Shown piece after piece: positions 24,749-52,894 of a stretch of 64,000 bases of DNA. Position numbers and translations under genes: made by a program. Under the pieces are notes generated by a model that saw only the letters and a list, made by a program, of their open reading frames with translations, was not told where the DNA came from and did no database searches. The stretch is from a virus. Position 1 is the stretch's first letter, and every line of letters begins with the position of its first letter. Location of the stretch: the IMG/VR virus record IMGVR_UViG_3300028535_000001. The stretch is one strand, 5' to 3'.

Positions 24749-25600
24749 TTACGTAGCGTTTCCTATGATTGTTTTTTGTGTAACACCACTAGAGTTTTTG
24801 ATTAACAACGTCACAGCTGAGCTGAAATTAGATGAATCAATAGTAGCTACTTGAGCACCTTTTGATCCAGTAAATCCAACAATACCTTGGTTTGATAATT
24901 CAACCCATTGAGTTGAGTTACCATCATTGTAGTAGAAATATTGTACGCCAGTAGCGTTATCTACCCAAATGTCTCCCTCTCCAACACCTGAAGTAGGTGG
25001 AGTAGCGGCAGTTGTAATATCAAGGTTTCCTTCTGATCCTGTAAATCCTATATCACCTTTTGATCCTGTAAATCCTATATCACCTTTTGATCCTGTAAAT
25101 CCTATATCACCTTTTGATCCTGTAAATCCTATAACTCCTTGAGCACCTGTAGCTCCTAGAGAACCTGTGAAACCAATGTCTCCTTTAGAACCTGTAAAAC
25201 CAATATCACCTTTAGAACCTGTGAAACCAATTGTACCAGAAAGATCAGATACATATGAGTATACTGTTCCGTTCCATAAATACAATCTAGAATTTTCGGC
25301 GTCTGTTAGTGATCCATTTTCAATTATAGCAAATTCACCAGTGACTATGCCACTTGGTGATGTGTCTGCTGATAGAGCTGCAACACTTGTATAAGTCTTC
25401 GCAATGTTGAATCCTAAACCAGTAGCACCTAAAGAGCCTGTAAAACCAATATCACCTTTAGAACCGGTGTAACCGATTGATCCAGTGAAACCTGCTGTTA
25501 ACGGCTGTAGCGCCCACCCATTTCCGTTCCATTTCCACTGACGTGTGCCGAGTGTGTATAGATCGTTTAACGAGGGACTATTTGGAAAGTTTATTGCCAT
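24749..25600 (-). CDS. Collagen-like fibre protein A
   Basis: G-X-Y runs GFTGSKGDI; modules shared with 23226, 25780 and 61379. Confidence 0.85.
   Translation of the reverse strand: MAINFPNSPSLNDLYTLGTRQWKWNGNGWALQPLTAGFTGSIGYTGSKGDIGFTGSLGATGLGFNIAKTYTSVAALSADTSPSGIVTGEFAIIENGSLTDAENSRLYLWNGTVYSYVSDLSGTIGFTGSKGDIGFTGSKGDIGFTGSLGATGAQGVIGFTGSKGDIGFTGSKGDIGFTGSKGDIGFTGSEGNLDITTAATPPTSGVGEGDIWVDNATGVQYFYYNDGNSTQWVELSNQGIVGFTGSKGAQVATIDSSNFSSAVTLLIKNSSGVTQKTIIGNAT
25034..25133. repeat. Perfect 27-bp tandem repeat (3 copies plus partial) encoding KGDIGFTGS
   Basis: tgatcctgtaaatcctatatcaccttt. Confidence 0.95.
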
Positions 25601-25717
25601 TTTGTTTGTCTCCTAATTTATTGTTATGTTTTGTCTTTTTTAATTAAAAAATTCAATACTATACATCTTATATCAATTATTTTATATTGTAAGAAAGGTT
25701 TCGTTCTTTCTACATTC

Positions 25718-25725
25718 TATTTATA
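25718..25725 (-). promoter_or_regulatory. T4-type late promoter
   Basis: TATAAATA about 118 nt upstream of ATG 25600. Confidence 0.7.
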
Positions 25726-25779
25726 ATACATAAACACTGCACAAGACATATAATACAGTATTTGTCAAATTTATTTTAA

Positions 25780-27390
25780 CTACGTACCAATTGTACCACC
25801 ATTTAGGCACCAACCGGTACCATCCCATACGCAGGAGAAGGTATTGGCATAAACGCCACCTGTAGTATCTAATCTCCATATATGTGAAGCTTTTAATTCT
25901 GTTGCACCTGTAACAATACTAACAACTTTTGCGTTAGAAACTGTAATATCGCTATATGTTGATGTTGTTATACCTGATTTATAGAAAATTAACTCTTGTC
26001 CTATATAAGTGCCGTCTGCAAGTGTATAATTTATACTTGATGTAATAAAGTGATTACGTTTTGTTATATCTAAAGTGCCTGGAGCTTCATTCGCTATGTA
26101 TTCACTTGTTGTTATATGAGAACCTGCTATTGTTAATTTATCACTTGTAAGTCCAATGCTTACTTCATTTTCTCCCATTTTTAAACTGTTATCGCTTAAG
26201 AATAAGTGTCTAACTTTTCTATCAGCACTACCTATGTCATATGTTGAATTTGCTACAGGTAATAAATGTCCACTATTTGTAATATCCCAACGGTCAGTAC
26301 CTTCAGTTTTTATAGTAACTTCGCCATCTGTACCAGTATCAACTACTGTCACAGCACTATTGCCAACTGTTATAGAACTTCCTCCTGTTCCTGCCGAACC
26401 TGTAAATCCAGTTGAGCCTGTAAATCCTACTATACCAGCATTTGCTAATTCTACCCATTGATTACTGTTGCCGTCATTCATGTAGAAGTATTGAATACCT
26501 GTTGCGTCATCTATCCAAACATCTCCAAGTCCTGCTGAAGCAGGTGGAACTGAATTTAATGTAACATCTAAATTTCCTTCTGATCCTGAATAACCAATTA
26601 CACCTTGATCGCCTTTTGATCCTGAATACCCAATTGATCCTGTATAACCAATTGATCCAAGATCACCTTTTGATCCTGTAAATCCTATTATACCTTGAAT
26701 ACCTTGATCGCCTTTTGATCCTGTATATCCTAAATTTCCTTTTGATCCAGTAAAACCAACGGCGCCAGCTGTACCTGCTGTACCTTTTGATCCTGTGAAA
26801 CCTACACTACCAATATCTCCTTTTGATCCTGTAAATCCTGTTGCACCTGTTCCACCATCAGCACCTTTTGATCCTGTAAAACCTACAGTACCAATATCTC
26901 CTTTTGATCCTGTAAAACCTACAGCGCCAGTATCTCCTTTTGATCCTGTATAACCTAAATTTCCTTTTGAGCCAGTGAAACCAACGGCGCCGGCTGTACC
27001 AGTATCTCCTTTTGATCCTGTAAAACCAATTGCACCTGCTGATCCTGTATAACCTACTCCACCACTTGTACTGAATAATGACCAGTTACCGTCCGCATTT
27101 GGAACAGCACCTGTTATGGTACTACGAACTTCTGAACCTAAAAGTTTATAAGTGTAATACTTGTCGCCTGTGTAAGTTGTGGAACCGGAAGTATATGTGT
27201 TCTTAACATAAACTAACATACCTTCCTGGATTCTTGCTCCAGCAATATCTGTTAATCTATCACTAACGTTACCTGTTATGGAATGGAGTGTACCTCTAAC
27301 TTCTGTATCTAATACAATTGGAGCATTAGTGCCGGTACTCCATGTACCTGGCCAGACGTTTCGGGTTAATCCATCGTAATTACTTGCCAT
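25780..27390 (-). CDS. Collagen-like fibre protein B
   Basis: Long uninterrupted G-X-Y tract of G[FY][TS]GSKG units flanked by globular domains. Confidence 0.85.
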   Translation of the reverse strand: MASNYDGLTRNVWPGTWSTGTNAPIVLDTEVRGTLHSITGNVSDRLTDIAGARIQEGMLVYVKNTYTSGSTTYTGDKYYTYKLLGSEVRSTITGAVPNADGNWSLFSTSGGVGYTGSAGAIGFTGSKGDTGTAGAVGFTGSKGNLGYTGSKGDTGAVGFTGSKGDIGTVGFTGSKGADGGTGATGFTGSKGDIGSVGFTGSKGTAGTAGAVGFTGSKGNLGYTGSKGDQGIQGIIGFTGSKGDLGSIGYTGSIGYSGSKGDQGVIGYSGSEGNLDVTLNSVPPASAGLGDVWIDDATGIQYFYMNDGNSNQWVELANAGIVGFTGSTGFTGSAGTGGSSITVGNSAVTVVDTGTDGEVTIKTEGTDRWDITNSGHLLPVANSTYDIGSADRKVRHLFLSDNSLKMGENEVSIGLTSDKLTIAGSHITTSEYIANEAPGTLDITKRNHFITSSINYTLADGTYIGQELIFYKSGITTSTYSDITVSNAKVVSIVTGATELKASHIWRLDTTGGVYANTFSCVWDGTGWCLNGGTIGT

Positions 27391-29426
27391 TAGCTAATCT
27401 CCACATATGTTGTTCCTGGTTGTAAAGTAAATCCGTATAAGTGATAATCTTCAGCAACGAATCCTGATGGCGCTGCTGTTTGTATTAAGCCAATTGTTCC
27501 ACCATCTGTAGTAGATACATCACTTAATAATCCAGCACTAGCACCAGTTTTAAATGTTGTTGGTTGTGTAACCGAATTCCTGACAGCAAACCAAAAAGCA
27601 CGAGGATTAGAATCACTATTGTTCACTGCTTGGACGGAAAAATCATGAGTCTGATTGGCTAGTTGATTTGCTGCTGAGTCGAAACCGGTTGACGTACTAT
27701 CATCTATTATATCTGTAAGTGTGGGAGGGGATCCTACACTTGTACTCCAAATCCAAAAACTTGGATATGAAAATGTAGCAGATACGTTTGAAGTTGTTGA
27801 TGATTGCGTGTCGGTGTACGATGAACCGGTTACGTTTACAGGTCTAGTGAAAGTCGTTGTGTTTGAAATTGTACGTGTTGTTCCAGTATTATTCTTATGT
27901 ATTGGATCAGTAAACGTAAAAGTTCCACTAACGTATCCACTTCCTGATGTGTTGTTCAAAGAACCTCCTGCTGATGTTAACAAATGTGAAGTATTACTAT
28001 TAGTTAAAATATTACTTACATTAGTAGAGTAAGAGGTACTTGAATATGTTTTTAAAAATGTTTCGCCTGAAACATTGCTTTTAGATAAACTATGAGAAGC
28101 TGTTCCCCAATTGAGTGAGAAACTAGTATCTGAAACTGTATATTCTGATTCAGAACCATCGTTATGATTAAATTTAATTGTAGCTCCTGCTGAACCACCA
28201 GTACGAGTAGTTGATGTTGATCTAATAAATGAACTTGAATTGTTTGTAGTGAAAGATTGATTCCAATCTACACCACCAGCTGGCGTTGATGAATAACTAC
28301 CTGCTGAATAATTACTTAAAGTACCGTTAACACTTCCACTTGTTTGAGTGATAGAGTAAACTGAACTTATAAAATCCGATGTAACGTCACTAGGGTTATC
28401 TACTGATACAGAAAATCCTGTAACTGGTTGATCCCATTTTGGAGAAGTTGGAGAACTACTTGCTGAAAAAGTTGGAGTAAATGTTGCTAAAGTTAATCTT
28501 AAAAGATCACTTGAAAATTCTGCTGTTCTAATTGTATTTGTTGTACTACCTTCTTTATAACCTGTAAGTGTTCTATAATCTCCTGAAGTTGTAAATACAA
28601 ATGGAGAACCTGTACCTGTACCTGCTGAACCAGTAAAACCAATTACACCTACTGATCCTGTAAATCCTGCTCCTACTGAACCAGTGAAACCAACAGCGCC
28701 GGCTGTTCCTGCGTCACCTTTTGATCCTGAATAACCTAAATCACCTTTTGAACCTGAAAATCCAACTGCACCTGTAGCTCCTGAATCTCCTTTTGATCCT
28801 GAATAACCTAAAGTTCCTTTTGAACCTGTAAAACCAACTGCACCAGCAGCTCCTGAATCTCCTTTTGATCCAGTATAACCACCACCTGGTCCTTGAGCAC
28901 CAACTGATCCTGTGAAACCTGCACCTGTTGATCCAGTAAAACCTAAACCTCCAGTATCTCCTTTTGAACCTGAAAATCCAACTACACCAGCAGCTCCTGT
29001 ATCTCCTTTTGAACCTGAAAATCCAATTGCACCTGTAGCTCCAATATCACCTTTTGAACCAGTGAAACCTGCACCTGTTGATCCTGTAAAACCAACGGCG
29101 CCATCCGAACCATCTGTACCATCAACACCTTTTGATCCTGTGTATCCTGCACCTACTGATCCAGTGAAACCTACTGTACCTAGATCGCCTTTTGATCCAG
29201 TATAACCAACAGCACCTGCTGATCCAGTGTAACCTGCACCTGCTGATCCTGTATAACCTAAACCTCCGACTGATCCTGAATATCCTTGTGAACCGGAATA
29301 ACCACCGGGTGAGCCTGCAACTCCAGCAGCTCCAGATGAACCTGTGAAACCTGCTGTACCCGCCGATCCAGTATAACCTATACGCCCTAGGCCTACTCTT
29401 ACTCCTGCGCCTTTAATTACTGGCAT
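27390..29426 (-). CDS. Collagen-like fibre protein C with a Ser/Thr-rich beta C-terminal region
   Basis: About 260 aa of G[FY][TS]GS repeats, then an S/T-rich domain. Confidence 0.85.
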   Translation of the reverse strand: MPVIKGAGVRVGLGRIGYTGSAGTAGFTGSSGAAGVAGSPGGYSGSQGYSGSVGGLGYTGSAGAGYTGSAGAVGYTGSKGDLGTVGFTGSVGAGYTGSKGVDGTDGSDGAVGFTGSTGAGFTGSKGDIGATGAIGFSGSKGDTGAAGVVGFSGSKGDTGGLGFTGSTGAGFTGSVGAQGPGGGYTGSKGDSGAAGAVGFTGSKGTLGYSGSKGDSGATGAVGFSGSKGDLGYSGSKGDAGTAGAVGFTGSVGAGFTGSVGVIGFTGSAGTGTGSPFVFTTSGDYRTLTGYKEGSTTNTIRTAEFSSDLLRLTLATFTPTFSASSSPTSPKWDQPVTGFSVSVDNPSDVTSDFISSVYSITQTSGSVNGTLSNYSAGSYSSTPAGGVDWNQSFTTNNSSSFIRSTSTTRTGGSAGATIKFNHNDGSESEYTVSDTSFSLNWGTASHSLSKSNVSGETFLKTYSSTSYSTNVSNILTNSNTSHLLTSAGGSLNNTSGSGYVSGTFTFTDPIHKNNTGTTRTISNTTTFTRPVNVTGSSYTDTQSSTTSNVSATFSYPSFWIWSTSVGSPPTLTDIIDDSTSTGFDSAANQLANQTHDFSVQAVNNSDSNPRAFWFAVRNSVTQPTTFKTGASAGLLSDVSTTDGGTIGLIQTAAPSGFVAEDYHLYGFTLQPGTTYVEIS

Positions 29427-29463
29427 GTCTTAATTCTTATCCCCCTCATGTTAAGTCCAAGCA

Positions 29464-29492
29464 TTGACTTTTTTTTGTAACTCTGTTATAGT
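29464..29492 (+). promoter_or_regulatory. Sigma70-type promoter for the glycosyltransferase arm
   Basis: TTGACT-N17-TATAGT with TG extension. Confidence 0.65.
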
Positions 29493-29493
29493 A

Positions 29494-29505
29494 TATTTAT
29501 AAATA
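29494..29505. promoter_or_regulatory. Palindromic bidirectional late promoter
   Basis: TATTTATAAATA contains TATAAATA on both strands, between divergent fibre and GT genes. Confidence 0.75.
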
Positions 29506-29543
29506 ATCTGTAGTGAATTGATACTCAAAATGAAAAATTATAA

Positions 29544-31604
29544 ATGATTTCTATCGCATTTTTAGATATAATTGGTCTTCCCTATGATGGAGACACTTTA
29601 AAGAAACGTGGCCTTGGAGGTTCCGAGTCTGCGACTATCTTAATGGCTAGAGAACTAGCCAAATTCGGTTTCAAAGTTACTATATTTAATAACTGTTTAA
29701 GTGATCCTAATCTTGCAAAAGAAGGTATTTATGATGGTGTACAATATTTAGATAATTCAATTTTTGATTATAAAAGTGATTTTAGTTTTGATGTTGTTAT
29801 ATCTTTAAGAACAATCGTTCCATTTTTACCAAGTACTTTATACAACCAATTCAAACAATTCAATCCTAGAAGGTATTCTGCAATAGTTCAAAATGCAAAA
29901 TGGAAAGTAATGTGGATGCATGATACATTTGCAACCGGAGATCACTTATTAGAAAGCTTACTTGTAAATGAACATATAAATGAAATATTTACTTTGTCTG
30001 ATTTCCATTCAACTTATGTTTTAAATTGTGACCATGGTAAAAGAAGAAACATGGAAGTATTAAAACATAAATTTTTTCAAACTAGAAATGGAATAGTAAC
30101 CTATAGAAATGATATTGATATAAGAAAAAAGGATCCTCACTTATATGTTTTCAATGCAGCTTACACAAAAGGTATGAAACCTTTAGTTGTGGATATATGG
30201 CCAAAAATAAAAGCAAAAATACCTGAAGCTAAATTAATATGTATTGGTGGTTTTTATACATTTAAGGGTGGACAAATGGATGCTCAAGGAAAAGAATGGA
30301 CTATATTGAAAAACAATCCTCTTTATAAAAAATTAAGTGTAACATTTACAGGCGTTATTAGACAAGATGAAATAGCAAATATATTGGCCATGGCAAGTTA
30401 TAAATTATTTCCAGGTGCCTTTCCTGAAACATTTGGTATATCATCTTTAGAAGCAATAGCATATAATACACCTATCATTGGTACACGTTTTGGTGCTTTA
30501 GAAGAAACAGCAGTTAGTGAAGCTTGTTATTTAATAGATTATGCAATAGAACCTAATAGTTTATTTCCATCTATTCCTAAAGTAAACCAAATAAATAGAT
30601 TTGTCACCACTGTAATAAAGGCTCATCACAATAGATATTTACACCAACAAAAACAATATGCTTGTAATCAAATTAAAGGTTGTGTTGGTTGGGATACGGT
30701 TGCCTTACAATGGAAACAACATTTATTTAAAAAATTAGGCCATTACTTATCAAAAGAAGATTATAGAAAAGTAAGTCACATTAATTCTAGAGTCAGAAAA
30801 GTATTTGGTAGAAGAATTACAAATTTAGAAGAAAACTATTTACCAAGAAAACCAGAACAAAAGATAGTTATAATAACGCCTACTTATAACTCTGATAAAT
30901 ATATTGATAGATGTATTAAGTCAGTTATTTCACAAGACTATGATAATTATGAAATGATTATAATTGATGACGCTTCTACGGATAATACACATTACATTGC
31001 CCAAAAATATGAAAGTGATAAGATAAAAATTATTAGAAATGAAGTTAATAAAGGAGCTGTTTGTAACCAAATAGAAACTATAAGAATATATCGCCAGTTT
31101 GAAAAGAAGTACAAAGGTAGAAATGCCAAAGATGATATAGTAATGTTTTTAGATGGTGATGACTCTTTTATAAATGATAATCAAATATTACAATATTATA
31201 ATAACCTTTATGACGGCACTACAGAATTTTCATATGGATCATGTTGGTCAGAGGTAGACAAAATACCTTTAGTAGCACAAAACTATCCAGAGGAAGTTAA
31301 ACAAAAAAGAGAATATAGAAAATATAAATTTAATTGGAATATGCCATACACCCATTTAAGAACATTTAAAGCAGGTCTTTTAGATGACGTAGATGATAGT
31401 AATTTCCAAGATGAAAATAAAAAATGGTACAGAGCCGGCGGTGATGGTTCTATATTTTATACTCTAATTGAGAAAGCTGATCCCGCTAAAATTAAAGTTG
31501 TAACAGATATAGTATATTCTTATAATGATATTAATCCTTTAAATGATTATAAAATTAACAGTGACGAACAAACAAAAAATGCAAATAGGATACTTACCCA
31601 ATGA
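29544..31604 (+). CDS. Bifunctional glycosyltransferase (GT-B/GT4-like + GT-A/GT2)
   Basis: N-terminal GLGGSE and ETFGISSLEA; C-terminal TPTYN, IIDDASTD, FLDGDD. Confidence 0.92.
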   Translation: MISIAFLDIIGLPYDGDTLKKRGLGGSESATILMARELAKFGFKVTIFNNCLSDPNLAKEGIYDGVQYLDNSIFDYKSDFSFDVVISLRTIVPFLPSTLYNQFKQFNPRRYSAIVQNAKWKVMWMHDTFATGDHLLESLLVNEHINEIFTLSDFHSTYVLNCDHGKRRNMEVLKHKFFQTRNGIVTYRNDIDIRKKDPHLYVFNAAYTKGMKPLVVDIWPKIKAKIPEAKLICIGGFYTFKGGQMDAQGKEWTILKNNPLYKKLSVTFTGVIRQDEIANILAMASYKLFPGAFPETFGISSLEAIAYNTPIIGTRFGALEETAVSEACYLIDYAIEPNSLFPSIPKVNQINRFVTTVIKAHHNRYLHQQKQYACNQIKGCVGWDTVALQWKQHLFKKLGHYLSKEDYRKVSHINSRVRKVFGRRITNLEENYLPRKPEQKIVIITPTYNSDKYIDRCIKSVISQDYDNYEMIIIDDASTDNTHYIAQKYESDKIKIIRNEVNKGAVCNQIETIRIYRQFEKKYKGRNAKDDIVMFLDGDDSFINDNQILQYYNNLYDGTTEFSYGSCWSEVDKIPLVAQNYPEEVKQKREYRKYKFNWNMPYTHLRTFKAGLLDDVDDSNFQDENKKWYRAGGDGSIFYTLIEKADPAKIKVVTDIVYSYNDINPLNDYKINSDEQTKNANRILTQ

Positions 31605-33034
31605 AAATAAAAAAAATATTAATAGCCATACCAACAAACAAGTACATAGAACCAACAACATACAAATCAATATATGATCTTATTATTCCACAAGGATATA
31701 AAGTTGAATTTCAATTTTTCTTTGGATATCAAATAGATCAAATAAGAAATTTAATAGCACATTGGGCAACCCACTACGATTATTTATTTTCTGTAGACAG
31801 TGATATATCTTTTGAAAAAGATACGTTAGTTAAACTGTTATCACATGATAAAGATATTGTTTCAGGTCTTTATATTCAAAGAATACCAGGAACTCACTCT
31901 TTAGAAATTTATGAGGCTAAAGAAAATGGTGGTTCTAAACGTATTCCTTGGGAAAGAATTAAAAATCTTCCTTTGGTAGAGATAGTGGCCTGTGGTATGG
32001 GCTGTGCTCTAATTAAAGGTCATGTATTAAGAAAAGTTGGTTATCCTTATTACACATATCATTCTGCATTAGATCATAAAAATACAGTATCCGAAGATGT
32101 TGATTTTTGTAGAAAGGTACAGTTAAATGGTTTTAAAATTTTTGCTGATACTACAATACGTTGTGAACACACAGGAGCAAGTACATATAAAGTAGGAGAA
32201 ATCCAAAACAACAAACCATTGATTGAGGAAGAGGTACGAGCACCTATTCAAATAGGAGGAGTTCCAAAAGCTACAGCTGTACCTGCACCTGTACAAAAAA
32301 CATTGCACCCAAAAACTGCCAATCTTTCCAAGCCTTTGGCTAGATATGATGATAGTACATCTAAAAAAATAAAAAGAACTTATCCAGGTATTGATCCTAA
32401 AACTGGTAAATATGCATTAGAAGTAAATGAAGGAGAGAAATTTACAGGCGATAGTGTAGAGTATACTTCATTAGCAGAAGCAGTACAAAGTTTAAAAAAT
32501 CCTATTGGTGCTAGTGTAGAACTTGGCGTTAGATTAGGATTAGGTAGTAAAACTATTATAGACGCATATAGAAATTTTCATCCTAACATTAGATTAAATC
32601 ATTTAGGTATAGACCCATATGGTGATATTGACTATGCAGCTTCTGATAGTGTATTGGCAAGAAAGTTTAACTATGATAACTTAATGAAAAAGACAACATT
32701 AATAAACTTTGCTGAAGAATATCCAGAATTTCATCTAGTTAATTTTGAAGATACAGAATTTTTTAATAGATTTAGTGATGGTTATCCTGTTTATGAAGAA
32801 AAGAAACATATGATAACTCATTATGAACTTGTTCACTTTGACGGTCCACATGATACTAAAAGTGTTATGAGAGAAGCCGTTTTCTTCAATCAAAAAAAAG
32901 CAGATCAAACATTTTGGATATTTGATGATATTTCAGGTTTAAGATGGAGTGTTTTAAATGGCTTTATGGGAAAAGCAGGATTTAAACTTGTTAATAAAGG
33001 ATTGAATAAAGCTGTATACGAATATAATATTTAA
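31601..33034 (+). CDS. GT2-like glycosyltransferase fused to a class I methyltransferase
   Basis: FSVDSDI, GMGCALIK, SEDVDFC; C-terminal ELGVRLGLGS, GIDPY, HFDGPH. Confidence 0.85.
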   Translation: MKIKKILIAIPTNKYIEPTTYKSIYDLIIPQGYKVEFQFFFGYQIDQIRNLIAHWATHYDYLFSVDSDISFEKDTLVKLLSHDKDIVSGLYIQRIPGTHSLEIYEAKENGGSKRIPWERIKNLPLVEIVACGMGCALIKGHVLRKVGYPYYTYHSALDHKNTVSEDVDFCRKVQLNGFKIFADTTIRCEHTGASTYKVGEIQNNKPLIEEEVRAPIQIGGVPKATAVPAPVQKTLHPKTANLSKPLARYDDSTSKKIKRTYPGIDPKTGKYALEVNEGEKFTGDSVEYTSLAEAVQSLKNPIGASVELGVRLGLGSKTIIDAYRNFHPNIRLNHLGIDPYGDIDYAASDSVLARKFNYDNLMKKTTLINFAEEYPEFHLVNFEDTEFFNRFSDGYPVYEEKKHMITHYELVHFDGPHDTKSVMREAVFFNQKKADQTFWIFDDISGLRWSVLNGFMGKAGFKLVNKGLNKAVYEYNI

Positions 33035-33372: not shown

Positions 33373-33396
33373 ACCATTATTTATAATGGAAATTTG

Positions 33397-41792: not shown

Positions 41793-41804
41793 TAAATATT
41801 AATA

Positions 41805-42644: not shown

Positions 42645-42654
42645 GGAGTAAATT

Positions 42655-43053: not shown

Positions 43054-43076
43054 TAAATAAGTATGAGGAGAACATT

Positions 43077-44597: not shown

Positions 44598-45400
44598 TTT
44601 ATAAAAATAAATTTGGTGAAATTGATATATTAAATTCAAAATATAATTTTAATAATAAAACTATAGCCATATCTATGTCTGGCGGATGTGATAGCACTAT
44701 GTTATGTTATTTGCTTGCAAAAACTATACAAAAGGAAAAATTAAATATTATTATACAACCATATAATGGTTACGATATTGATATACCACACGATTCTGAA
44801 AATGTGCCAAACATTATAAAATATATGCAAAATAAATTTCCAGGTGTAATAAGATGGCCAATAGGGGTGGTTTATAAAACTTTAAGTAATGAAAAAACTG
44901 TTCTAGGTACAGGTACAGGAGATAGTATAGTATTTGAAGATGAGATAATTAGACAAGATTTGCCATTTAAAGGAAATAAAATTCTTTTTGAATCAGATAA
45001 AGATAAAAATAATTGGATCCGCCCATTAAGAGATTTAATTGAAAAAAAAGTAGTTGATAATATAGTAATTGTAGCACTTTCACAAGGTCCTCCTTTAAAA
45101 GTACAACTAGATATGATAAAAAAATACAATATGGTAGGTCCAAAATTAATACAAAGAATAGAAGGATATTTAGATAAAGAAGATTTAAATGAAATCCAAC
45201 AATTGAAGCAGAGCTCTAATCTTGTAAATAATGCACCATTTAAATTTATTGATAAACGATTTATAATACAATGTTATAAAGATTTTAAAATGATGGATGT
45301 TTTAAATGAAATGACCGAATCGTGTACAAAACCTGGTGGAAAATGTGGAACCTGTTGGTGGTGTAGAGAAAGAGAATGGGCAATGGAAGAAGTATGTTAG
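44594..45400 (+). CDS. QueC-like PP-loop ATPase (paralogue 2)
   Basis: SMSGGCDST; TESC...CGTCWWCRER. Confidence 0.82.
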   Translation: MIYKNKFGEIDILNSKYNFNNKTIAISMSGGCDSTMLCYLLAKTIQKEKLNIIIQPYNGYDIDIPHDSENVPNIIKYMQNKFPGVIRWPIGVVYKTLSNEKTVLGTGTGDSIVFEDEIIRQDLPFKGNKILFESDKDKNNWIRPLRDLIEKKVVDNIVIVALSQGPPLKVQLDMIKKYNMVGPKLIQRIEGYLDKEDLNEIQQLKQSSNLVNNAPFKFIDKRFIIQCYKDFKMMDVLNEMTESCTKPGGKCGTCWWCREREWAMEEVC

Positions 45401-46056
45401 ATTTAAATTTATTAAAAAATATAATGAGTGAGATTAGAGAGAATGATGATCTATTAGATTCGTTAAGTCCTAATCAATTCGCTACTAAACTAAAACTTGT
45501 TGAACATGTAGACAAATTAGATTTTTTAAATAAAGATTCAAAAATAGTTATATTTGGTAGTTGGTATGGCAGTATATTAATACCTGCTTTTTATCATAAA
45601 GTAAAACAAATAGTATGTGTTGATACAGACGCACAAGTAATTAGTAGATCAAAGTATAGAATATTTCCAGAATGGAATATTGATTGGATAACAGGTGATG
45701 TATTTGAAAAGTATAGAGATCAATACGATGGTGTTGATTTGTTTATTAATACATCTTGCGAACATATGAAACCTATGAAAGAATGGGGACCGGCACCAAT
45801 AATGAAAAATCCTTGGTGGGGTAGAACTTCACCTACACACTTTGCTTTTACATCAAACAACATGTTTGATATTGAAGGCCATATTAATTGTGTAGATACA
45901 ATAGAAAATTTTAAGAAACAATTGCCTAGTAATGCAACTGTATTATCAGAGGAAAAGGTAACAGATTATAGAGGTACAAGATTTATTATAGTAGGAAAAA
46001 TGGAAGGAAAACCTGATCCGATTATGTCATGGGAAGAAGCTAAGAAAATAAAATAA
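45394..46056 (+). CDS. Class I SAM-dependent methyltransferase-like protein
   Basis: VIFGSWYG motif I, VDTD, GDVF, INTSCEHM. Confidence 0.7.
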   Translation: MLDLNLLKNIMSEIRENDDLLDSLSPNQFATKLKLVEHVDKLDFLNKDSKIVIFGSWYGSILIPAFYHKVKQIVCVDTDAQVISRSKYRIFPEWNIDWITGDVFEKYRDQYDGVDLFINTSCEHMKPMKEWGPAPIMKNPWWGRTSPTHFAFTSNNMFDIEGHINCVDTIENFKKQLPSNATVLSEEKVTDYRGTRFIIVGKMEGKPDPIMSWEEAKKIK

Positions 46057-46934
46057 TGAAATTATTTGATAATGAAACTAAAAAAAGAGTTATATTCTCC
46101 TTGTATATTAATATACCTAAAGAGGAGTTAGACTTATTTGATAAACATATAAAGAAACCAGAAACAGAGTTTACAAATATTAATACTAAAAATGAATTTG
46201 AAACTCATTACCAAAGACTAATAGATTGTAAAAAAGAATATGCTGATAAAATAGGCGTAGACTTTTTTATGCATGAAGAATATAAAGAATATTACGATCA
46301 CTTTCAAAAAAACTATCCAGAAATTACAAGTTATAATATAGTTAACTTTTTTAAAATACATTTACTATATGAGTATAGTAAAAAATATGATGAAGTATTA
46401 TACCTAGACTTTGATGTTGTTCCTAATACAGACGAAAACTTTTTTGACCATTGGGATTTATCAAAAGGTGTTTGTGTTTTAAATAATAATGAAAGAGTAT
46501 CTCCTATTCAAAAGATTACAGAAAGAACACAAACAATAAGAAGTCCAAACGCAAAATTTTATAATGCTCAAGCTATGTTAATAGAAAAAGGTTTAAGTCC
46601 TGAAAATGATGTTATTAATACAGGTATAATAGGTATTGATAAAGAACATTTAGATCAATTAGAATATTTTACAAATTTTAAAGAAACTCTTAATGAAATG
46701 ACAAGTCTTATAGGTGTATATGATATATTTCCTAAAAAGATTGCTGATTTCTTTGGTTATGATAATGAAACAATATTTGCTGTGAAACTAAAAGAAAAGA
46801 AAGTACCAGTACAATGGTTAGATAAAGATTGGCACTATTTCTTTGATACAAATCTTTTTATTCCTAAAACTGCCAAACTTATACATGCTATTAATAAAAG
46901 GTTTGATATAATTTGGAGAAACATTGATGATTAA
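46056..46934 (+). CDS. GT-A glycosyltransferase-like protein
   Basis: VLYLDFDVV (DXD), INTGII, DNETIF, W, H. Confidence 0.75.
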   Translation: MKLFDNETKKRVIFSLYINIPKEELDLFDKHIKKPETEFTNINTKNEFETHYQRLIDCKKEYADKIGVDFFMHEEYKEYYDHFQKNYPEITSYNIVNFFKIHLLYEYSKKYDEVLYLDFDVVPNTDENFFDHWDLSKGVCVLNNNERVSPIQKITERTQTIRSPNAKFYNAQAMLIEKGLSPENDVINTGIIGIDKEHLDQLEYFTNFKETLNEMTSLIGVYDIFPKKIADFFGYDNETIFAVKLKEKKVPVQWLDKDWHYFFDTNLFIPKTAKLIHAINKRFDIIWRNIDD

Positions 46935-47706
46935 AATATGTACTGTATACTTCAAAGGCATGTATACACCAGATTATGTTGCTAACTTATATGATGGACT
47001 GAAAAGAAACAGTACAATACCTTTTCAATTTATTTGTTTAAGTGATGACCCTAACGTAAAGGCCGATGTAGTATTACCATATAATCATCATAGTACTATT
47101 GTAAAGCACTGGCACAAATTAAAATTTTTTAGTCCTTTATTTGGTGGTCAACAACCAGGCGATGAGATTGTTATAATGGATATAGATCAAGTTATTGTAG
47201 GTAATGTAGATGATCTTATAGGACATCCAGTTGGCGATGATGAGTTAGTATCATATGGTGTATTTTGGAATGAAAGATTACATACTAACAGATTAAAAGA
47301 TAATAACATATTACCTTTGAATGGTGGTTTTTATAAATTTAAATCTGGCCAATTCAAGCATATATGGGATGATTTCGCACTTAATCCTGAATATTGGCAA
47401 TTGCATTATTACAATGTAGGTAAAGTACACTTTAAATATTATGGCGAACAAAACTATGTTGATTGGAAAATATTTGAAAAGAAAAGTAAACTTACTAATA
47501 CACCACAAGAATGGTTAGGTAAGTATACAGAAAACGGAAAAGATATGATAAATCTGAACAAGATGTATGCAAAAAAATTTGATACAGATTATATGTTGTT
47601 AGATGAACCAAATGAAAAATTAAAGATTGTACACTATACAGGTCCGAATCGTGTTATTCACGAACTAAAAGACAGCCCTTTGTATAGTAAGTGGATAAAT
47701 AGGTAA
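46924..47706 (+). CDS. GT-A glycosyltransferase-like protein
   Basis: Y...YV.NLY, WHKLKFF, MDIDQVI, GEQNYV, IVHYTG. Confidence 0.78.
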   Translation: MMIKICTVYFKGMYTPDYVANLYDGLKRNSTIPFQFICLSDDPNVKADVVLPYNHHSTIVKHWHKLKFFSPLFGGQQPGDEIVIMDIDQVIVGNVDDLIGHPVGDDELVSYGVFWNERLHTNRLKDNNILPLNGGFYKFKSGQFKHIWDDFALNPEYWQLHYYNVGKVHFKYYGEQNYVDWKIFEKKSKLTNTPQEWLGKYTENGKDMINLNKMYAKKFDTDYMLLDEPNEKLKIVHYTGPNRVIHELKDSPLYSKWINR

Positions 47707-48993
47707 ATGGACGAGAAACAAAAAAAAGAATTTGAACAAAAGTTAAAGGATAAGAAACTATGGTTTTGTCCTTTACCTTTCACACATGTATTCTCTAGTT
47801 TAAGTGGTAGATTTGCACCTTGCTATGACGCACTAGCAAGAACTGGCCATAATATGGAAGATACTACAATAAGAGAATGGTATACTTCTGACTATCAAAA
47901 CACTTTAAGAAAAGAAATGTTAAAAGAGGATTATAATGGTAAATTCTTTAAACATCATTGTACAGGTTGTTGGAAACAAGAATCAAAATATGGTCGTTCA
48001 GATAGACAAAAATATGTTGAACAAATATTAGCAGGTACATTTGATAGTAAAGTACCAGAGTTATTAAGAGCTGTTCAAAAATTTCAAGATGACGGTAAGT
48101 TAGATTTAGATGAAAGAATATTAGACATTAAAATGAAGATGTTTGGTAATGCTTGTAATCTAGATTGTTATATGTGTACACCAAGAAGTGCTAACACTAG
48201 AACTATATCTTTAAAAAAATTAAAGAAAGTATATGATCCTGATTTAGACCCTAAAGACGGTGATAGAATGAATACTTTAAAACATGATGATATAGAATAT
48301 CTAGATGATATTGCCTCTGTAGCAAAATATACTAGATCAATCAAACTAATTGGTGGCGAACCTTTAGTTATGGTAAATCATTATAAACTATTAGACAAAT
48401 TAGTAAAAACAGGTTACTCAAAAGGTATAGACTTAATCTATAAAACAAACTTATCAGTATTTGATATGGACGGTTACAACTTTAGAGATTACTTTGACCA
48501 CTTCAAAGAATTTGTAATGAAAATATCTATAGATAGTTATGGTAAATATAATGACTATATAAGAAAGAAATCAGATTGGCCTTCACTTTTAGATAATATG
48601 AAAACAATGAGAGCAAGAAGAAATGCAAGAGTTAATGTTCACTCTGTAATATCTTTTTTAAGTGTATTAGAAAATTATAAACTAATTGCATTATTAAAAG
48701 ATATGGGTATAGCACATACGTTCTATATTATAGAATATCCAAAAATCTTACAAGTTAAAAATTTACCATATGATATAAAACAAAAATTAATACCTTTTTA
48801 TAAAGACTATCCTAACATTATAAGATCATTAGAAAAGGAACAAGATGAAGCAGAATTTATTAAGACTATTGAGTATTGTCAAGATTTAGATGAAAATGGC
48901 TTCAGTAAGGAAAAAGGACATGATTTATTTGCACTACATCCAGAACTAGAAGAACATTATATAAAGGCGAAACAACGTGAGACAAGACATTAA
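47707..48993 (+). CDS. Radical SAM protein with an N-terminal twitch/SPASM domain
   Basis: FCPLPF..PC..CTGCW N-terminal; GNACNLDCYMC; IGGEPL; SIDS; GATAAATA-N5-ATG. Confidence 0.9.
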   Translation: MDEKQKKEFEQKLKDKKLWFCPLPFTHVFSSLSGRFAPCYDALARTGHNMEDTTIREWYTSDYQNTLRKEMLKEDYNGKFFKHHCTGCWKQESKYGRSDRQKYVEQILAGTFDSKVPELLRAVQKFQDDGKLDLDERILDIKMKMFGNACNLDCYMCTPRSANTRTISLKKLKKVYDPDLDPKDGDRMNTLKHDDIEYLDDIASVAKYTRSIKLIGGEPLVMVNHYKLLDKLVKTGYSKGIDLIYKTNLSVFDMDGYNFRDYFDHFKEFVMKISIDSYGKYNDYIRKKSDWPSLLDNMKTMRARRNARVNVHSVISFLSVLENYKLIALLKDMGIAHTFYIIEYPKILQVKNLPYDIKQKLIPFYKDYPNIIRSLEKEQDEAEFIKTIEYCQDLDENGFSKEKGHDLFALHPELEEHYIKAKQRETRH

Positions 48994-49014
48994 ATAATAA
49001 TTGAAGGAGATATT

Positions 49015-49770
49015 ATGAAGCTAACATACGGCGAACAGACAATAGACTTATTTGGAGAAGACATTTTTCCAGATGGACCCCCAGAAAAGGTTGTAATCTC
49101 ATTATCAGGAGGTTGTGACTCATCATCACTTACATATTTAATTGGAACTAATTTTCCAAATATTCAAATGTATCCTTTTCATTCAAAAGATGAAGACTGC
49201 ACTATAGATACTGAACGTGCTATAGAAGTACATAAATTTTTACAAGACAAATTTCCTACAGTTAATGATTTAGAAGTCTTTAATGTAAGAACAAGTGATC
49301 CTAGTTGGCAAAAAAAGGCCAAAGAAGCAATGGCTAATCCAAAAAATAGTCCTACAGTAAATGGTAAAAAAGTTTCTATGTGGGGATCATTAAACGGTTG
49401 TTCAAAAGCTCTACAAAACAGAAACGTAAGATCAATTATGTCAACAAGATATTCAGCACCTGTTGTTATGGCCATGACTTCTAATCCTCCAGTAGATGTA
49501 CAAAAAGAAAGAGGATTTTATGATGTAGCAGAAAGAAAAAGGGATCCAGGCGACAGTAATTTAAAAATGATGGATATAATGCCAGCTGGTGGTAAAACAT
49601 ATCAACCATATCTAAAAGTTAATAAAAAGTTTGTAGCAGGTATCTTTAAAGAAAATAATTTAATGGAAACTTTATTTCCAAAAACTAAATCATGTGCTTG
49701 GTCAAAAACACTTGAAATATGTGGTAAATGTTTTTGGTGTAATGAAAAAGCTTGGGCATTTGAGGATTAG
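49015..49770 (+). CDS. QueC-like PP-loop ATPase (paralogue 3)
   Basis: SLSGGCDSS; TKSC...CGKCFWCNEK. Confidence 0.82.
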   Translation: MKLTYGEQTIDLFGEDIFPDGPPEKVVISLSGGCDSSSLTYLIGTNFPNIQMYPFHSKDEDCTIDTERAIEVHKFLQDKFPTVNDLEVFNVRTSDPSWQKKAKEAMANPKNSPTVNGKKVSMWGSLNGCSKALQNRNVRSIMSTRYSAPVVMAMTSNPPVDVQKERGFYDVAERKRDPGDSNLKMMDIMPAGGKTYQPYLKVNKKFVAGIFKENNLMETLFPKTKSCAWSKTLEICGKCFWCNEKAWAFED

Positions 49771-49779
49771 ACGTACATT

Positions 49780-50247
49780 ATGGTTGCTACAATACGATAC
49801 ATAAATGTCAATCCTGATGGTGGCGTACCAAAGCGTCATGTCACTACAGCTAATATAGAAAAATTAGGTCTTAAAGAAGATAAACAAAATTCTCATGGAG
49901 GACTTAATCGTGCTGTTTTATTATATGATAATCAAAAAATTATCAAATTACAGGCAGACGGACACCCTATTGCTCCTGGAACAGCCGGAGAAAATATAAC
50001 TATAGATTTTTGGAGAGAAGGATTATCATATGATAATTTTAAAAAAGGAGATATAGTTAAAGTAGGAAAAACAATACTTGAATTAACTTTTACAGCACCA
50101 CCATGTAAAGGAATTGGTAAGTCATTTTTAAATGGCAACTGCAAATTAGTAGATGAAAAAGTTAATCCAACATATGGCAGATGGTGTGCCAAAGTTTTAA
50201 AAGAAGGCCAAATAAGTATAGGAGATGTAATAGAGATTGATACATAA
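49780..50247 (+). CDS. MOSC-domain protein (YiiM-like)
   Basis: GGVPK, D.Q..HGG.NRAV, PG..GENIT, PPC, VLKEG.I..GD. Confidence 0.9.
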   Translation: MVATIRYINVNPDGGVPKRHVTTANIEKLGLKEDKQNSHGGLNRAVLLYDNQKIIKLQADGHPIAPGTAGENITIDFWREGLSYDNFKKGDIVKVGKTILELTFTAPPCKGIGKSFLNGNCKLVDEKVNPTYGRWCAKVLKEGQISIGDVIEIDT

Positions 50248-50867
50248 TGTACACTATAAAAAAACTTAAAACCTGTACGCTATTGAATTTAATTGATTTT
50301 GAAAGCCATAATCTATTATCAGGTGATAGGGCTTTAAATGATTTGCGTTTTAGTAAATTAAAACAATTGTTGTTTGAAACTCCGAAATTTGATGACTTAT
50401 GTATAGTAACTGAAAATTTAGATGAGTATGGTTATAATACTAGAATGAATGAACTATTTACTGAAGTTAATAACAGATATTATTGGCTAGAGTTACCAAA
50501 CTTCAACGAGGGATATGATAGATTTAACAAAGAAAATCCATTTAACTCCATTAAATTTATTAAAAAAGAATTTAAAATTTTAGGAGCTGAAATTAAAAAT
50601 GTAATTGTGGCAGGTCAAAACTTACCAGGTTGTGTTTTTAAATCATTAGATCACTCTGCTTTACGTTGGGCTGAACAAGGACATCATGTACAGATAGTAT
50701 TATCTATGTGTGGCGATTATGAAGTGTCTGGTGTTGGACCAGAAAAATATATGAACTCATTTGCTAATTTATATAAACAAATTAAAAAATCTGGACAATG
50801 GGCTAATATTGATTTAGTATCTGAAATTAAAGATATAAAATTTTTTAAAAATGGTGAAGTAATATGA
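50247..50867 (+). CDS. Putative isochorismatase-like cysteine hydrolase
   Basis: LIDF (Asp), VIVAGQNLPGCV (nucleophile Cys), QGHHVQIV..MC pattern. Confidence 0.55.
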   Translation: MYTIKKLKTCTLLNLIDFESHNLLSGDRALNDLRFSKLKQLLFETPKFDDLCIVTENLDEYGYNTRMNELFTEVNNRYYWLELPNFNEGYDRFNKENPFNSIKFIKKEFKILGAEIKNVIVAGQNLPGCVFKSLDHSALRWAEQGHHVQIVLSMCGDYEVSGVGPEKYMNSFANLYKQIKKSGQWANIDLVSEIKDIKFFKNGEVI

Positions 50868-50879
50868 GAAGAATAATTT

Positions 50880-51083
50880 ATGATTAGAGATAGTAATAAT
50901 GCAGCTAATGATGAGTTTGGTATAAGTGAAGAAGAATTTAACAAGCGTCATAAGAAAGCACTCAAAGACGCAGAACCAACAGGCATTAAGCGAAGAAAAA
51001 AGAAAAGAATACCTAAAGAAAAACCTAATCCTTTTAGAGGGCTAGGTAACGGTGGCAGTAGCAGAGGACCTTGGCCTAAATGA
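50880..51083 (+). CDS. Small basic hypothetical protein
   Basis: 67-aa ORF within the operon. Confidence 0.55.
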   Translation: MIRDSNNAANDEFGISEEEFNKRHKKALKDAEPTGIKRRKKKRIPKEKPNPFRGLGNGGSSRGPWPK

Positions 51084-51089
51084 TTTAAT

Positions 51090-51674
51090 ATGAGAAGAAT
51101 AATAGCTTGTAGATTCGGTAATAAGTTTACACAATGGCATGTTGATAATTTAAAATATATGATAGATTTCCATTCTGGAATATCATATGATTCTTTTGAA
51201 GTTATTGAAAATGATATTTACGGTAATTGGTATAATAAATTCCAAATGTACGATAAGTTCCGGGATGGGGAGAACTTATACTTTGATTTAGACGTTATTA
51301 TATGGAAAAAGTTACCAGATTTATTCAGAAAAGACTTTACTTTATTAAATGATTTATGGTGGAGAGAAGAAGCTCATACTCCATTAAACTCAACTATTGT
51401 CTCTTGGACAGGAGATGTTTCTCACATATGGAAAAAATTTAAAGAAGCTGACACGTGTTACCTGGAGATGTATAATAAAGGTAGTGATGAGTTTTATTAT
51501 AAAGAAATAGAATACAAAAACTATGATAAAGTTTGTCCTTCTATTAAAAACTATATGTATGAAATTCCACCAAAAGAATTTAGTATCTGTACTCTAGGTC
51601 AAATGAACCACCTTTTAGAACCTGGTTGGAAAGGTTGGTGGTCAGATTTTATTCTACCTCACTATAAAGATTAA
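51090..51674 (+). CDS. GT-A glycosyltransferase-like protein
   Basis: G.KF...HV..L, WYNK, LYFDLDVII, NSTIVSW, GSDEF. Confidence 0.75.
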   Translation: MRRIIACRFGNKFTQWHVDNLKYMIDFHSGISYDSFEVIENDIYGNWYNKFQMYDKFRDGENLYFDLDVIIWKKLPDLFRKDFTLLNDLWWREEAHTPLNSTIVSWTGDVSHIWKKFKEADTCYLEMYNKGSDEFYYKEIEYKNYDKVCPSIKNYMYEIPPKEFSICTLGQMNHLLEPGWKGWWSDFILPHYKD

Positions 51675-52170
51675 GAGCACTCTTTAATAATTCAATTCTA
51701 GTTTTACATTTTCTTAATGCTTTTTTACCTTCAAGATTTTTAGAATCTTTTATCTTATCTATTTCAAACAATCCAATCTTTAAAGCAAACATTTCATCTT
51801 CGGTTGCTTCTTCAGGATTAAAAATAAAATCAAGAACTCTATTAGGAGAAGTATCATCTGTTTGTACAAGACCCTCTCTTTTAGCAATAGCTAAAGCTAC
51901 CTGTTCAAATTCTTTTTTTTGTTCTTCATTGTGACGATATGTACTCTCATGTATTTTTTCTATATTGGTAACTTTCATTAATGATATAAAGTATGGATGT
52001 TTTTCATCAAACTCAACGTGAGTAGATGTAAGACTTTCTTTATTTTCATTAGTTAATACTTCAATCCAATCTCTATTACTACTAGTAAATCTAGCGTCAA
52101 CGAAATATTTTAACATTTCATCACCAAATCCTACTTCTTTATGTTCTCTTTTCATTATTTCAATTGACAT
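51649..52170 (-). CDS. Hypothetical protein
   Basis: 173-aa ORF convergent with the island, coupled to the epimerase gene. Confidence 0.7.
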   Translation of the reverse strand: MSIEIMKREHKEVGFGDEMLKYFVDARFTSSNRDWIEVLTNENKESLTSTHVEFDEKHPYFISLMKVTNIEKIHESTYRHNEEQKKEFEQVALAIAKREGLVQTDDTSPNRVLDFIFNPEEATEDEMFALKIGLFEIDKIKDSKNLEGKKALRKCKTRIELLKSALNLYSEVE

Positions 52171-52894
52171 TTTTATTTTCCTTTATATAATTGTATAGGT
52201 CAGTTTTAACCGACCAGTTTAGTTTATTCAAAATTTTAGTATCTGCTGTATTATCTTCTCTTTCAAATTCATTACCTACCCTTTTTTCTTTGAAATCAAT
52301 TCCAAAATACGTTATCATCTCCAGCAAATTATAAGATTTTCCTATACCTATATCTGTTACACCTGTAAATTCACTTTTCATTAAAGTGTCAATAGCAGAT
52401 ATTATATCATCTACATGTATAAAATCTCTTGTATGATTAGTATGTACAAATGGTACATCGTTTCTTAATATTCTTGGTATCAACATATGCTCTCTAGCGC
52501 CTGGTCCGTATACAGTTGTAAATCTCATACCGATACTGTTTTCTGGTGCCATTTGTTCCAAAGAATATTTACTCATAGCATAAGGGTTACGCCAAGGCTC
52601 TATGGCCGTTGAAGAACTTGCATATAATATTTTTGTATTTGGAAAATAATCAAATAGTCTTTGACCTGCAATTACATTTTCTTTCCAGTATTCTGTAGGT
52701 CTATCTAAACTATCTCTAACTCCTGAAAGGCCAGCCAAGTGTATGACTAAACCTACATCGTATTTAAGGTCACAATTTAATAAATCGTTACCTGATAATT
52801 TGTCTATTGGGATTACTTTGTGATCGTTGTTTTTTAAATGCTTATGAAGGTGTTTTCCTATAAATCCTTCACTGCCTGTTAATAATATATTCAT
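52160..52894 (-). CDS. NAD-dependent epimerase/dehydratase (extended SDR)
   Basis: TGSEGFIG, HLAG, YASSS, YAMSK, RFTTVYGP, RDFIHV.D. Confidence 0.93.
   Translation of the reverse strand: MNILLTGSEGFIGKHLHKHLKNNDHKVIPIDKLSGNDLLNCDLKYDVGLVIHLAGLSGVRDSLDRPTEYWKENVIAGQRLFDYFPNTKILYASSSTAIEPWRNPYAMSKYSLEQMAPENSIGMRFTTVYGPGAREHMLIPRILRNDVPFVHTNHTRDFIHVDDIISAIDTLMKSEFTGVTDIGIGKSYNLLEMITYFGIDFKEKRVGNEFEREDNTADTKILNKLNWSVKTDLYNYIKENKNVN

Follow-up and report, generated by a model that had tools for sequence, protein, structure and literature searches.

In pelagimyophages the region between the neck genes and the baseplate gene VrlC has been named the host recognition cluster; it is hypervariable, it contains tail fibres, collagen repeats, many glycosyltransferases (GTs) and radical SAM cassettes, and its transferases have been interpreted as modifiers of the host O-chain (Zaragoza-Solas et al. 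2020, PMC7029224). We analyzed a cluster of this kind in a 64,000-nucleotide stretch of DNA from IMG/VR virus record IMGVR_UViG_3300028535_000001; the whole stretch is called the window below and supplies the position numbers. The evidence is genomic throughout and consists of gene content, folds, promoter motifs, synteny and co-occurrence, from which the enzymatic steps and the two acceptors considered below are inferred. Judged by comparison with relatives, the cluster is made up of two independently inherited modules: A (24749-33372), in which collagen-like fibre genes face a set of GT genes, and B (35445-53447), a core cassette of putative sugar enzymes.

The window comes from an uncultured, T4-like pelagimyophage of the SAR11-phage type, with a G+C content of about 30% and with Pelagibacter phages Mosig and HTVC008M as kin. 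Both its position, from neck gene gp14 to VrlC, and its content of fibres, GTs and radical SAM enzymes identify the region as a pelagimyophage host recognition cluster. The cluster itself has thus already been described; PMC7029224 records the same gp14-VrlC position, fibres, collagen repeats, GTs and radical SAM cassettes, but treats it as one hypervariable island, whereas we distinguish a GT module linked to the fibres from a conserved core cassette with an inheritance of its own. Cyanomyophages carry lipopolysaccharide (LPS) gene clusters of unknown role (PMC3037559). Virion glycosylation has been described in mycobacteriophages (Freeman et al. 2023, as cited in PMC12801897). Mycobacteriophages and the window have phage-encoded soluble GTs beside structural genes in common; the window differs in that its presumed acceptors are collagen-like fibres and its transferases multi-domain. 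In the mycobacteriophages the C-termini of capsid and tail-tube proteins are reportedly glycosylated, the glycans having been shown by mass spectrometry.

Other systems invite comparison as well. Giant viruses glycosylate fibrils or collagen, as exemplified by Mimivirus L230, the Mimivirus R135 fibril sugar cluster and chlorovirus A064R. They share with the window collagen-like or fibril proteins, a nucleoside diphosphate (NDP)-sugar pathway of their own (dehydratase, DegT-type aminotransferase, methylation) and multi-domain transferases; however, giant viruses infect eukaryotes, no lysyl-hydroxylase-type domain was found in the window, and the likeness is one of description. BclA, the exosporium filament protein of Bacillus anthracis, is a proline-poor G-X-T collagen with Thr O-linked oligosaccharides of unusual amino sugars. 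By description it resembles the window fibres as a proline-poor G-X-T collagen, but it is a bacterial spore protein. O-antigen conversion by GtrABC and Oac needs the flippase GtrA, the membrane-anchored GtrB and the polytopic GtrC. This system alters surface glycan, and phage GT2-type transferases are common to it and to the window; in contrast, a hydropathy scan of the window cluster found no membrane components.

Collagen-like fibres are paired with a glycosyltransferase fusion

Three genes on the minus strand, fibre A (24749-25600, 37 G-X-Y triplets), fibre B (25780-27390, 62 triplets) and fibre C (27390-29426, 82 triplets), score 49.7, 87.4 and 87.6 bits against Pfam Collagen (PF01391), all above the cut-off of 27.2 bits. 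The three collagen-like genes diverging from the enzymes, as reported in an initial annotation made from the sequence, are thus borne out. The repeats are of the G[FY]T-GSK-GDx type, with proline nearly absent. All three proteins fall into PHROG tail-fibre families, mostly through their repeats, and the C-terminal part of fibre B resembles fibre gp28 of cyanophage P-SCSP1u (PDB 8i4m, E 9.4e-5); the C-terminal part of fibre C found no sequence relative in a PDB profile search. From the PDB 8i4m match, the PHROG families and the late motifs described below, we conclude that the collagen-like fibres are virion parts.

Facing fibre C across a 117-bp gap is a soluble protein of 686 amino acids (aa) on the plus strand (29544-31604), a fusion of a GT4 (GT-B) and a GT2 (GT-A) domain (Pfam Glycos_transf_1, 47.2 bits; Glycos_transf_2, 80 bits) in which the hydropathy scan found no transmembrane (TM) segment. 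The next gene (31601-33034, plus strand) encodes a two-domain protein. The first ~200 aa form a GT-A-like domain that carries a DSD motif, and the profile of this domain matches the STIV A197 glycosyltransferase (PDB 2c0n, E 4.5e-5 over ~50 residues), which differs in being a small, stand-alone GT-A enzyme of an archaeal virus; hhalign found no match between the A197-like domain and the GT8-like family of module B. The C-terminal Methyltransf_24-like match is weak (21.9 bits, under the cut-off). The A197-like domain accompanies the GT fusion in relatives and is fused to it in one locus (L121; L and G labels denote loci and records of relatives). The module ends with a minus-strand gene for a 113-aa protein of virion type (33031-33372), which matches phrog_1084 (E 6e-23) and phrog_3304, 'L-shaped tail fiber protein assembly' (E 1e-17), in agreement with the small structural gene that had been noticed inside the island; its profile also weakly matches T5 p132 (E 0.009). 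This gene comes after the GT genes in distant phages too.

A search with the GT fusion yielded 61 viral loci at 47-98% identity. A collagen-like open reading frame (ORF) is divergently adjacent to the GT fusion in 39 of the 46 loci that have at least 1 kb of upstream sequence, so that the arrangement known from phage virion glycosylation, a soluble GT syntenic with its presumed structural substrate, is present here. In a tree of 71 distinct GT fusions, collagen pairing occurs on every deep branch (47-56% identity), with about seven losses. Four distant T4-like phages (L137, L147, L150 and L134), whose neck proteins are 35-44% identical, carry one or more collagen fibres, the GT fusion, the A197-like domain (separate or fused), the 113-aa gene and then the baseplate genes, with no module B between. 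The pairing holds even in phages with no other sugar gene nearby. Conserved divergent gene pairs usually signal a functional link, and for this pair the simplest such link would be that of substrate and enzyme. The co-travelling of the GT fusion, its GT-A partner and the 113-aa gene with collagen genes gives good comparative support for fibre glycosylation. To this extent the fibre glycosylation proposed in the initial annotation is supported for module A; the support does not extend to the island as one system.

Approached from the fibre side, a DNA pattern search for GFTGSKGD returned at least 118 contigs; among the matches listed, 82 loci were informative, of which 43 carry the GT fusion and 32 have it divergently adjacent. 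No full-length relative of the GT fusion was found in 50,697 GenBank phage records. Full-length matches in prokaryote genome collections are phage contigs binned in metagenome-assembled genomes (MAGs), again with collagen genes: a contig of a Gammaproteobacteria MAG (L267, NZZP01000034.1) and a 201-kb contig of a Cellvibrionaceae MAG (L268) are phage sequence with the set of collagen genes, GT fusion and 113-aa gene, and their MAG assignment is probably binning carry-over. The conserved collagen-GT fusion pairing, absent from deposited phages and not found in the papers searched, appears to be new. Relatives of the GT2 half of the fusion, 26-32% identical, were also seen in MAGs of Chlamydiae, Dependentiae/Babeliales and Phycisphaerales (L270-L290), lineages that mostly live inside protists.

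The pairing could also be read without any enzyme-substrate link, the cluster being a hypervariable dump of auxiliary genes in which the GT fusion and the collagen gene move as one mobile fibre cassette. The region is indeed hypervariable (PMC7029224), traces of cassette insertion such as a 23-nt repeat are present in module B, and the radical SAM and PP-loop inserts differ among relatives. We nevertheless consider this explanation improbable, since the pairing holds across 47-98% identity despite varied fibre lengths and neighbours, and since a distant pair lies on a contig of a bacterial MAG. This contig, of a Rhodospirillales MAG (L271:1614-7340), encodes a distant GT2 homologue of 687 aa, which has two GT2 domains as well as a tetratricopeptide repeat region; only 3 nt further on comes a collagen-repeat protein of 754 aa (123.9 bits), with a VWA protein behind it.

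Module B is inherited independently of the fibres

Relatives of the module B carbamoyltransferase were found on 297 viral contigs, of which 80 loci with a carbamoyltransferase at least 72% identical were kept for scoring gene presence, absence and order. About 17 conserved soluble genes recur in fixed order across these loci, a cassette found throughout the pelagimyophages. The plus-strand set comprises the GT-B-like protein, radical SAM with Cys-rich partner, SGNH-like protein, DegT, h102, radical SAM 41805, carbamoyltransferase, methyltransferase-like protein, GT8-like protein, GT-A protein and DxD protein, and the opposite-strand set h173, epimerase, an h310-like gene, h178 and VrlC. The DUF1289, SufT, MOSC, PP-loop and twitch radical SAM genes are inserts of the window's clade or only distantly matched elsewhere. 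Collagen genes and the GT fusion are absent from 17 of 20 longer module B records, including Mosig and two 100%-complete genomes; the three records with collagen genes are the closest kin of the window, and the GT fusion is present in exactly the same three. Because 17 of the 20 records lack both, module B is independent of collagen fibres. HTVC008M has a separate cluster (125017-132312, L090:17018-24313) with a GT, a methyltransferase, a carbamoyltransferase, a PP-loop 'NAD synthetase' and a UDP-glucose dehydrogenase.

These distributions bear directly on the proposal, made in the initial annotation, of one integrated 23-kb system in which all the enzymes serve the collagen fibres. In its favour, the two modules lie side by side in the window phage and its close kin, and late motifs stand at both divergence points. 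However, module B is found without collagen or GT fusion in the 17 records just described, two complete genomes and Mosig among them, and module A is found without module B. A single system of this kind is contradicted by this distribution and has in our estimate little chance of being correct. Where the initial annotation had looked to co-occurrence of island and collagen genes across genomes, module A does co-occur with them, but module B is distributed independently, an outcome that the annotation had itself counted against its proposal.

The plus-strand arm of module B (35445-51674) opens with the core GT-B-like gene (35445-36320), whose model (predicted local distance difference test, pLDDT, 75) has as its best listed structural matches GT-B enzymes or UDP-GlcNAc 2-epimerases at TM-scores of only 0.33-0.40, with one UbiX-like chain lower in the list. 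Next (36307-38541) are two core tandem duplicate pairs, each a radical SAM core of ~215 aa (starting at 36307 and 37532) and then a Cys-rich protein of ~125 aa, 64% and 49% identical between copies. Relatives of ~315 aa in marine metagenomes are fused, with a C-terminus matching the 127-aa Cys-rich partner (E 5e-14), and the phage genes therefore represent a split form; a representative search with radical SAM 36307 returned 1350 clusters, and the ten of fused length that were examined are marine metagenome contigs. Still on the plus strand, the core genes continue with DegT aminotransferase (38541; 264.9 bits, closest to the LegC/PseC sugar aminotransferases), h102 after it in the core list, an SGNH-like protein (39858, match under the cut-off), radical SAM 41805, a NodU-type carbamoyltransferase (43077, Pfam/NCBIfam), a methyltransferase-like protein (45376), a GT8-like protein (46056, GT8 match under the cut-off), a GT-A protein (46924-47706) and a DxD protein (51090). 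The GT-A protein model (pLDDT 73) matches ABO transferases, UGGT, LgtC and glycogenin with a Foldseek probability of 1.00 and TM-scores of ~0.5; with its invariant D86-I-D88 (a DxD motif) it has the features of a GT-A fold. The homologues retrieved for radical SAM 41805 were all at least 70% identical and all from marine metagenomes, none of them from a named cellular organism, and it had no match in records G021-G025, which are fragments.

The clade-specific inserts of this arm are a DUF1289 protein (37342), three PP-loop, QueC-like proteins (40902, 44594 and 49015; weak partial matches of 22.7-27.3 bits), a SufT-like DUF59 protein (42655), a twitch radical SAM (47707; NF033640, 292.7 bits), a MOSC protein (49780), h206 and h67; in the ESM Atlas, PP-loop 44594 matched viral QueC-like clusters only. 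A 23-nt direct repeat, 91% identical (50855-50877 and 51081-51103), lies either side of a 67-aa ORF and is consistent with a mini-gene having been inserted where two genes meet. On the minus strand, h173, an SDR-type epimerase/dehydratase (52160-52894; Pfam Epimerase, 91.5 bits) and h178 (together 51649-53447) are co-directional with VrlC and kept in 63, 51 and 44 of the 80 loci, respectively. Two further minus-strand genes are semi-conserved beside the core cassette, a B12-binding radical SAM (33397-34764, Pfam/NCBIfam, in 29 of 80 loci) and a 153-aa AspH-like 2-oxoglutarate oxygenase (34742-35203, in 18 of 80). In PDB profile searches the 260-, 291- and 194-aa proteins found no sequence relative, and a comparison of the 260-aa with the 194-aa family by hhalign yielded a probability of only 24%.

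In general, the gene content described in the initial annotation agrees with the ORFs and with Pfam, NCBIfam and model annotation. Profiles and models recover five to six GT-type genes in the whole island where about six had been claimed, and profile matches support the five radical SAMs (33397, of B12 type, 36307, 37532, 41805 and 47707), DegT, the NodU-type carbamoyltransferase, the epimerase and the AspH-like protein. The three QueC-like proteins, the SGNH protein and the methyltransferase domains are present, but their matches are weak or under the cut-off. In a Kyte-Doolittle hydropathy scan, which is not a dedicated predictor, none of the island proteins showed a convincing TM segment, and no flippase, polymerase, ligase, polyprenyl-phosphate transferase or GtrABC-type part was seen in the island. 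The chemistry of the island is therefore expected to be cytoplasmic.

Two other uses for these enzymes were considered. Module B alone might make a diffusible aminoglycoside- or nucleoside-like molecule, or its radical SAM, PP-loop and AspH enzymes might carry out a non-glycan modification of proteins. DegT, the O-carbamoyltransferase and the twitch and B12 radical SAMs recall aminoglycoside pathways, and NCBIfam gives matches to AprD4 and to maturases of ribosomally synthesized and post-translationally modified peptides, though far under their cut-offs. With four GT-type genes in the core of module B, and with no cyclitol synthase, precursor peptide or exporter found in scans of the island, we see only a slim prospect for either possibility. 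The second use would be hypermodification of the phage DNA with 7-deazaguanine or sugar-modified bases, which the QueC-like proteins bring to mind, as do the T4 transferases that glucosylate DNA. The search for DpdA/TGT (PF01702) covered two complete relatives (G007 and G010), Mosig and the nearest record (G001); it found no match in these four, while 14 of 14 control genomes were matched. Because DpdA/TGT is absent from the four relatives and the QueC-like matches are weak and partial, the 7-deazaguanine route is unlikely. Profile scans of the island detected no FolE, QueD or QueE, the PP-loop genes are clade-specific inserts, and DegT is of the NDP-sugar type. DNA modification is thus highly improbable, in line with the view originally taken of the island.

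Promoters and expression

The T4-type late motif TATAAATA occurs in 15 copies against 15.7 expected, a number not above chance. Its placement is distinctive, with 11 of the 15 copies in sense orientation and no more than 100 nt upstream of a gene start, compared with 12% for 8-mers of the same composition. Copies precede fibres C and A, the short gene at 23226, the GT fusion, the 113-aa gene and the first core gene of module B; the AspH gene has its copy farther off, at 178 nt. At the 113-aa gene the motif lies 5 nt before the ATG (region 33372-33385), is kept in 9 of 13 relatives and has a counterpart upstream of 8461-9372; such late mRNAs may be nearly leaderless, or translation may start elsewhere.

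Fibre C and the GT fusion share a control region in the gap that separates them (29464-29505). Here a sigma70-type promoter faces the GT gene (TTGACT-17-TATAGT with a TG; also given as TTGACA-17-TGTTATAGT) and directly adjoins the palindrome TATTTATAAATA, a late motif whichever strand is read. This arrangement is kept in the window's clade and in a clade with GT fusions 66-69% identical. A second divergent control region (35382-35444) has late motifs at 35382-35389 (minus strand) and 35395-35402 (plus strand) and a sigma70-type promoter at 35411-35439. Before the first core gene the sequence TTGACA-N17-TGnTATAAT is kept in most clades, often with NATAAATA just upstream, and in most clades only about 6 nt separate the end of its -10 element from the ATG, as would be expected if either the mRNA is leaderless or the start codon lies further downstream. 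Of 28 distinct relatives, no more than 5 retain the exact late motif in front of the core cassette. A sigma70 scan of 24-40 kb gave 72 sites against 77.6 expected, with no enrichment by count; the evidence for these promoters comes from the comparative conservation of the two sites, not from the number of sites.

Late motifs at both divergence points and inside the island, and sigma70-like promoters at both arms, had been noted from the window by itself; the former are supported by the placement of the copies and the latter by conservation across clades. The claim that fibres and enzymes are co-regulated holds for the late motifs, but not for the conserved sigma70-type promoters or for the core cassette, given its rarely kept late motif. 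From these patterns the enzymes look early-plus-late and the fibres late. An early start would suit a biosynthetic pathway as well as remodelling of the host.

RNA contigs from four marine RNA libraries, belonging to three studies, cover parts of the fibre genes, the promoter gap with the start of the GT gene, and parts of the core cassette. Sequence of this phage is therefore present in marine RNA libraries, in contigs that give neither timing nor rank. In two metatranscriptomes contig depth was about 90-130 over 24000-25770 and 1-5 elsewhere, values that give no gene ranking and may include DNA carry-over.

Cluster borders and neighbouring genes

The structural genes to the left of the fibres are about 75% identical in nucleotide sequence to those of Pelagibacter phage Mosig EXVC030M, with weaker matches in HTVC008M and cyanomyophages. 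The IMG/VR fragment G001 is 96% identical across the fibre genes and most of the island. On its left the variable cluster is bounded by the minus-strand neck genes gp14 (21582-22388) and gp13 (22395-23207), a pair that matches phrog_460/679 (head closure) and phrog_211 (head-tail adaptor) and is syntenic with the Mosig neck genes. We take the order fibres, gp13, gp14 to parallel gp12/wac, gp13, gp14 of T4. At the right border is a VrlC-like baseplate protein of 2024 aa (53825-59899, minus strand; Pfam DUF4815, 189.3 bits), in syntenic position to VrlC of Mosig; a second match within it, to the FCCH domain of ubiquitin-activating enzyme, scores 40.3 bits at residues 521-576. Mosig thus has a syntenic cluster, with a related enzyme core and different fibres.

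Two minus-strand genes lie between gp13 and fibre A. The first (23226-23615) encodes a short collagen-motif protein of 129 aa with six G-X-Y triplets in its translation and, upstream of it, late motifs at distances of 28 and 37 nt; over its first ~35 aa it matches the N-terminus of fibre A, and it may be a truncated fibre A paralogue or a fibre adaptor. The second, h310 (23753-24685), encodes a conserved Ser/Thr/Gly-rich protein of 310 aa for which profile searches found no Pfam, PHROG or PDB relative. Relatives of h310 are present in 42 of the 80 module B loci, and Mosig encodes two h310-like proteins. Beside gp13 in the window, the gene is found between the epimerase and VrlC in other pelagimyophages (L021:15548-16489, L043:16071-17006), and TATAAATA stands upstream of the h310-like gene in 19 of 24 distinct relatives. 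It is probably a late structural protein and a candidate glycan acceptor.

Proposed roles of the two modules

The explanation that we tentatively favour, while giving it not quite an even chance, is that the transferases of module A coat the collagen fibres with sugar, and that the separately inherited module B makes a tailored amino sugar for an acceptor not tied to collagen. The collagen-like fibres would be transcribed leftward from a late promoter, while the sigma70-type and late promoters in the same 117-bp gap would drive the GT4-GT2 fusion and the GT-A/methyltransferase gene rightward. The three soluble transferase domains would then add a short oligosaccharide, possibly methyl-capped, to the fibres in the cytoplasm before assembly, probably on Thr or Ser of the G-X-T/G-S-X repeats; the p132-like 113-aa protein would belong to the same fibre set. 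In module B, the SDR epimerase/dehydratase and DegT would make an amino-deoxy NDP-sugar, which the carbamoyl-, methyl- and perhaps acyl-transferases and the small radical SAMs would tailor; its transfer would fall to one GT-B and as many as three GT-A-like proteins. As the destination of this sugar, another virion protein, or supply of donor sugar to module A in this phage, seems slightly more likely than the host envelope.

Several observations weigh against this explanation. About half of the informative loci listed have G[FY]T-GSK collagen genes but no GT fusion, and GT-linked and GT-free collagen genes are alike in X/Y composition (Thr at Y 0.29 and 0.34, respectively). The Thr-rich repeat is therefore not specific to GT pairing; the composition test for such specificity saw no difference, and nothing was concluded from it. 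The conserved adjacency could reflect co-mobility of a fibre cassette and not enzyme and substrate. GT8-type and AspH/LpxO-type enzymes are typical of LPS work. The sigma70-type promoters, conserved in front of the two enzyme arms, would suit early roles equally well, remodelling of the host among them. In HTVC008M the sugar cluster, with a carbamoyltransferase 30% identical, sits in the replication module beside ribonucleotide reductase genes, and such cassettes are therefore not bound to the structural region. The published interpretation of the cluster is that it modifies the host O-chain (PMC7029224).

That interpretation would have the enzymes rebuild the SAR11 O-chain or capsule during infection and so block superinfection or re-adsorption. 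Besides the promoters and the published view (PMC7029224), the independence of module B from fibre type, the HTVC008M analogue in an early/replication region and the LPS gene clusters of cyanomyophages (PMC3037559) speak for it. Set against these are the late motifs that are present as well, the tight pairing of the GT fusion with collagen even where no other sugar gene is near, and the lack in the island of a TM protein, flippase, polymerase, ligase or polyprenyl-phosphate transferase, because of which a role in host LPS would need the export machinery of the host. On balance we regard host remodelling as unlikely, and as less likely than the sugar-coating of the fibres that we favour.

A broader conjecture, which we put forward as doubtful but possible, is that a widespread, as yet uncultured group of aquatic T4-like phages coats proline-free collagen fibres with an oligosaccharide of its own by means of a dedicated GT4-GT2-GT-A set, to which in the window phage the core cassette would supply carbamoylated, methylated amino sugars. 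Such fibres would be a counterpart, in viruses of bacteria, of the glycosylated Mimivirus fibrils, with Thr-linked sugars stabilizing the helix in place of hydroxyproline.

SAR11 phages are among the most abundant marine viruses, and their variable cluster is assumed to set host range. The split into two modules gives two testable units, and module B is carried by a cultured phage, Mosig. If the phage does make its own sugar coat, its adsorption and stability would hinge on a viral glycan, as would the way in which grazers or host defences recognize it, and many of the "LPS genes" of marine myophages would need reinterpretation.

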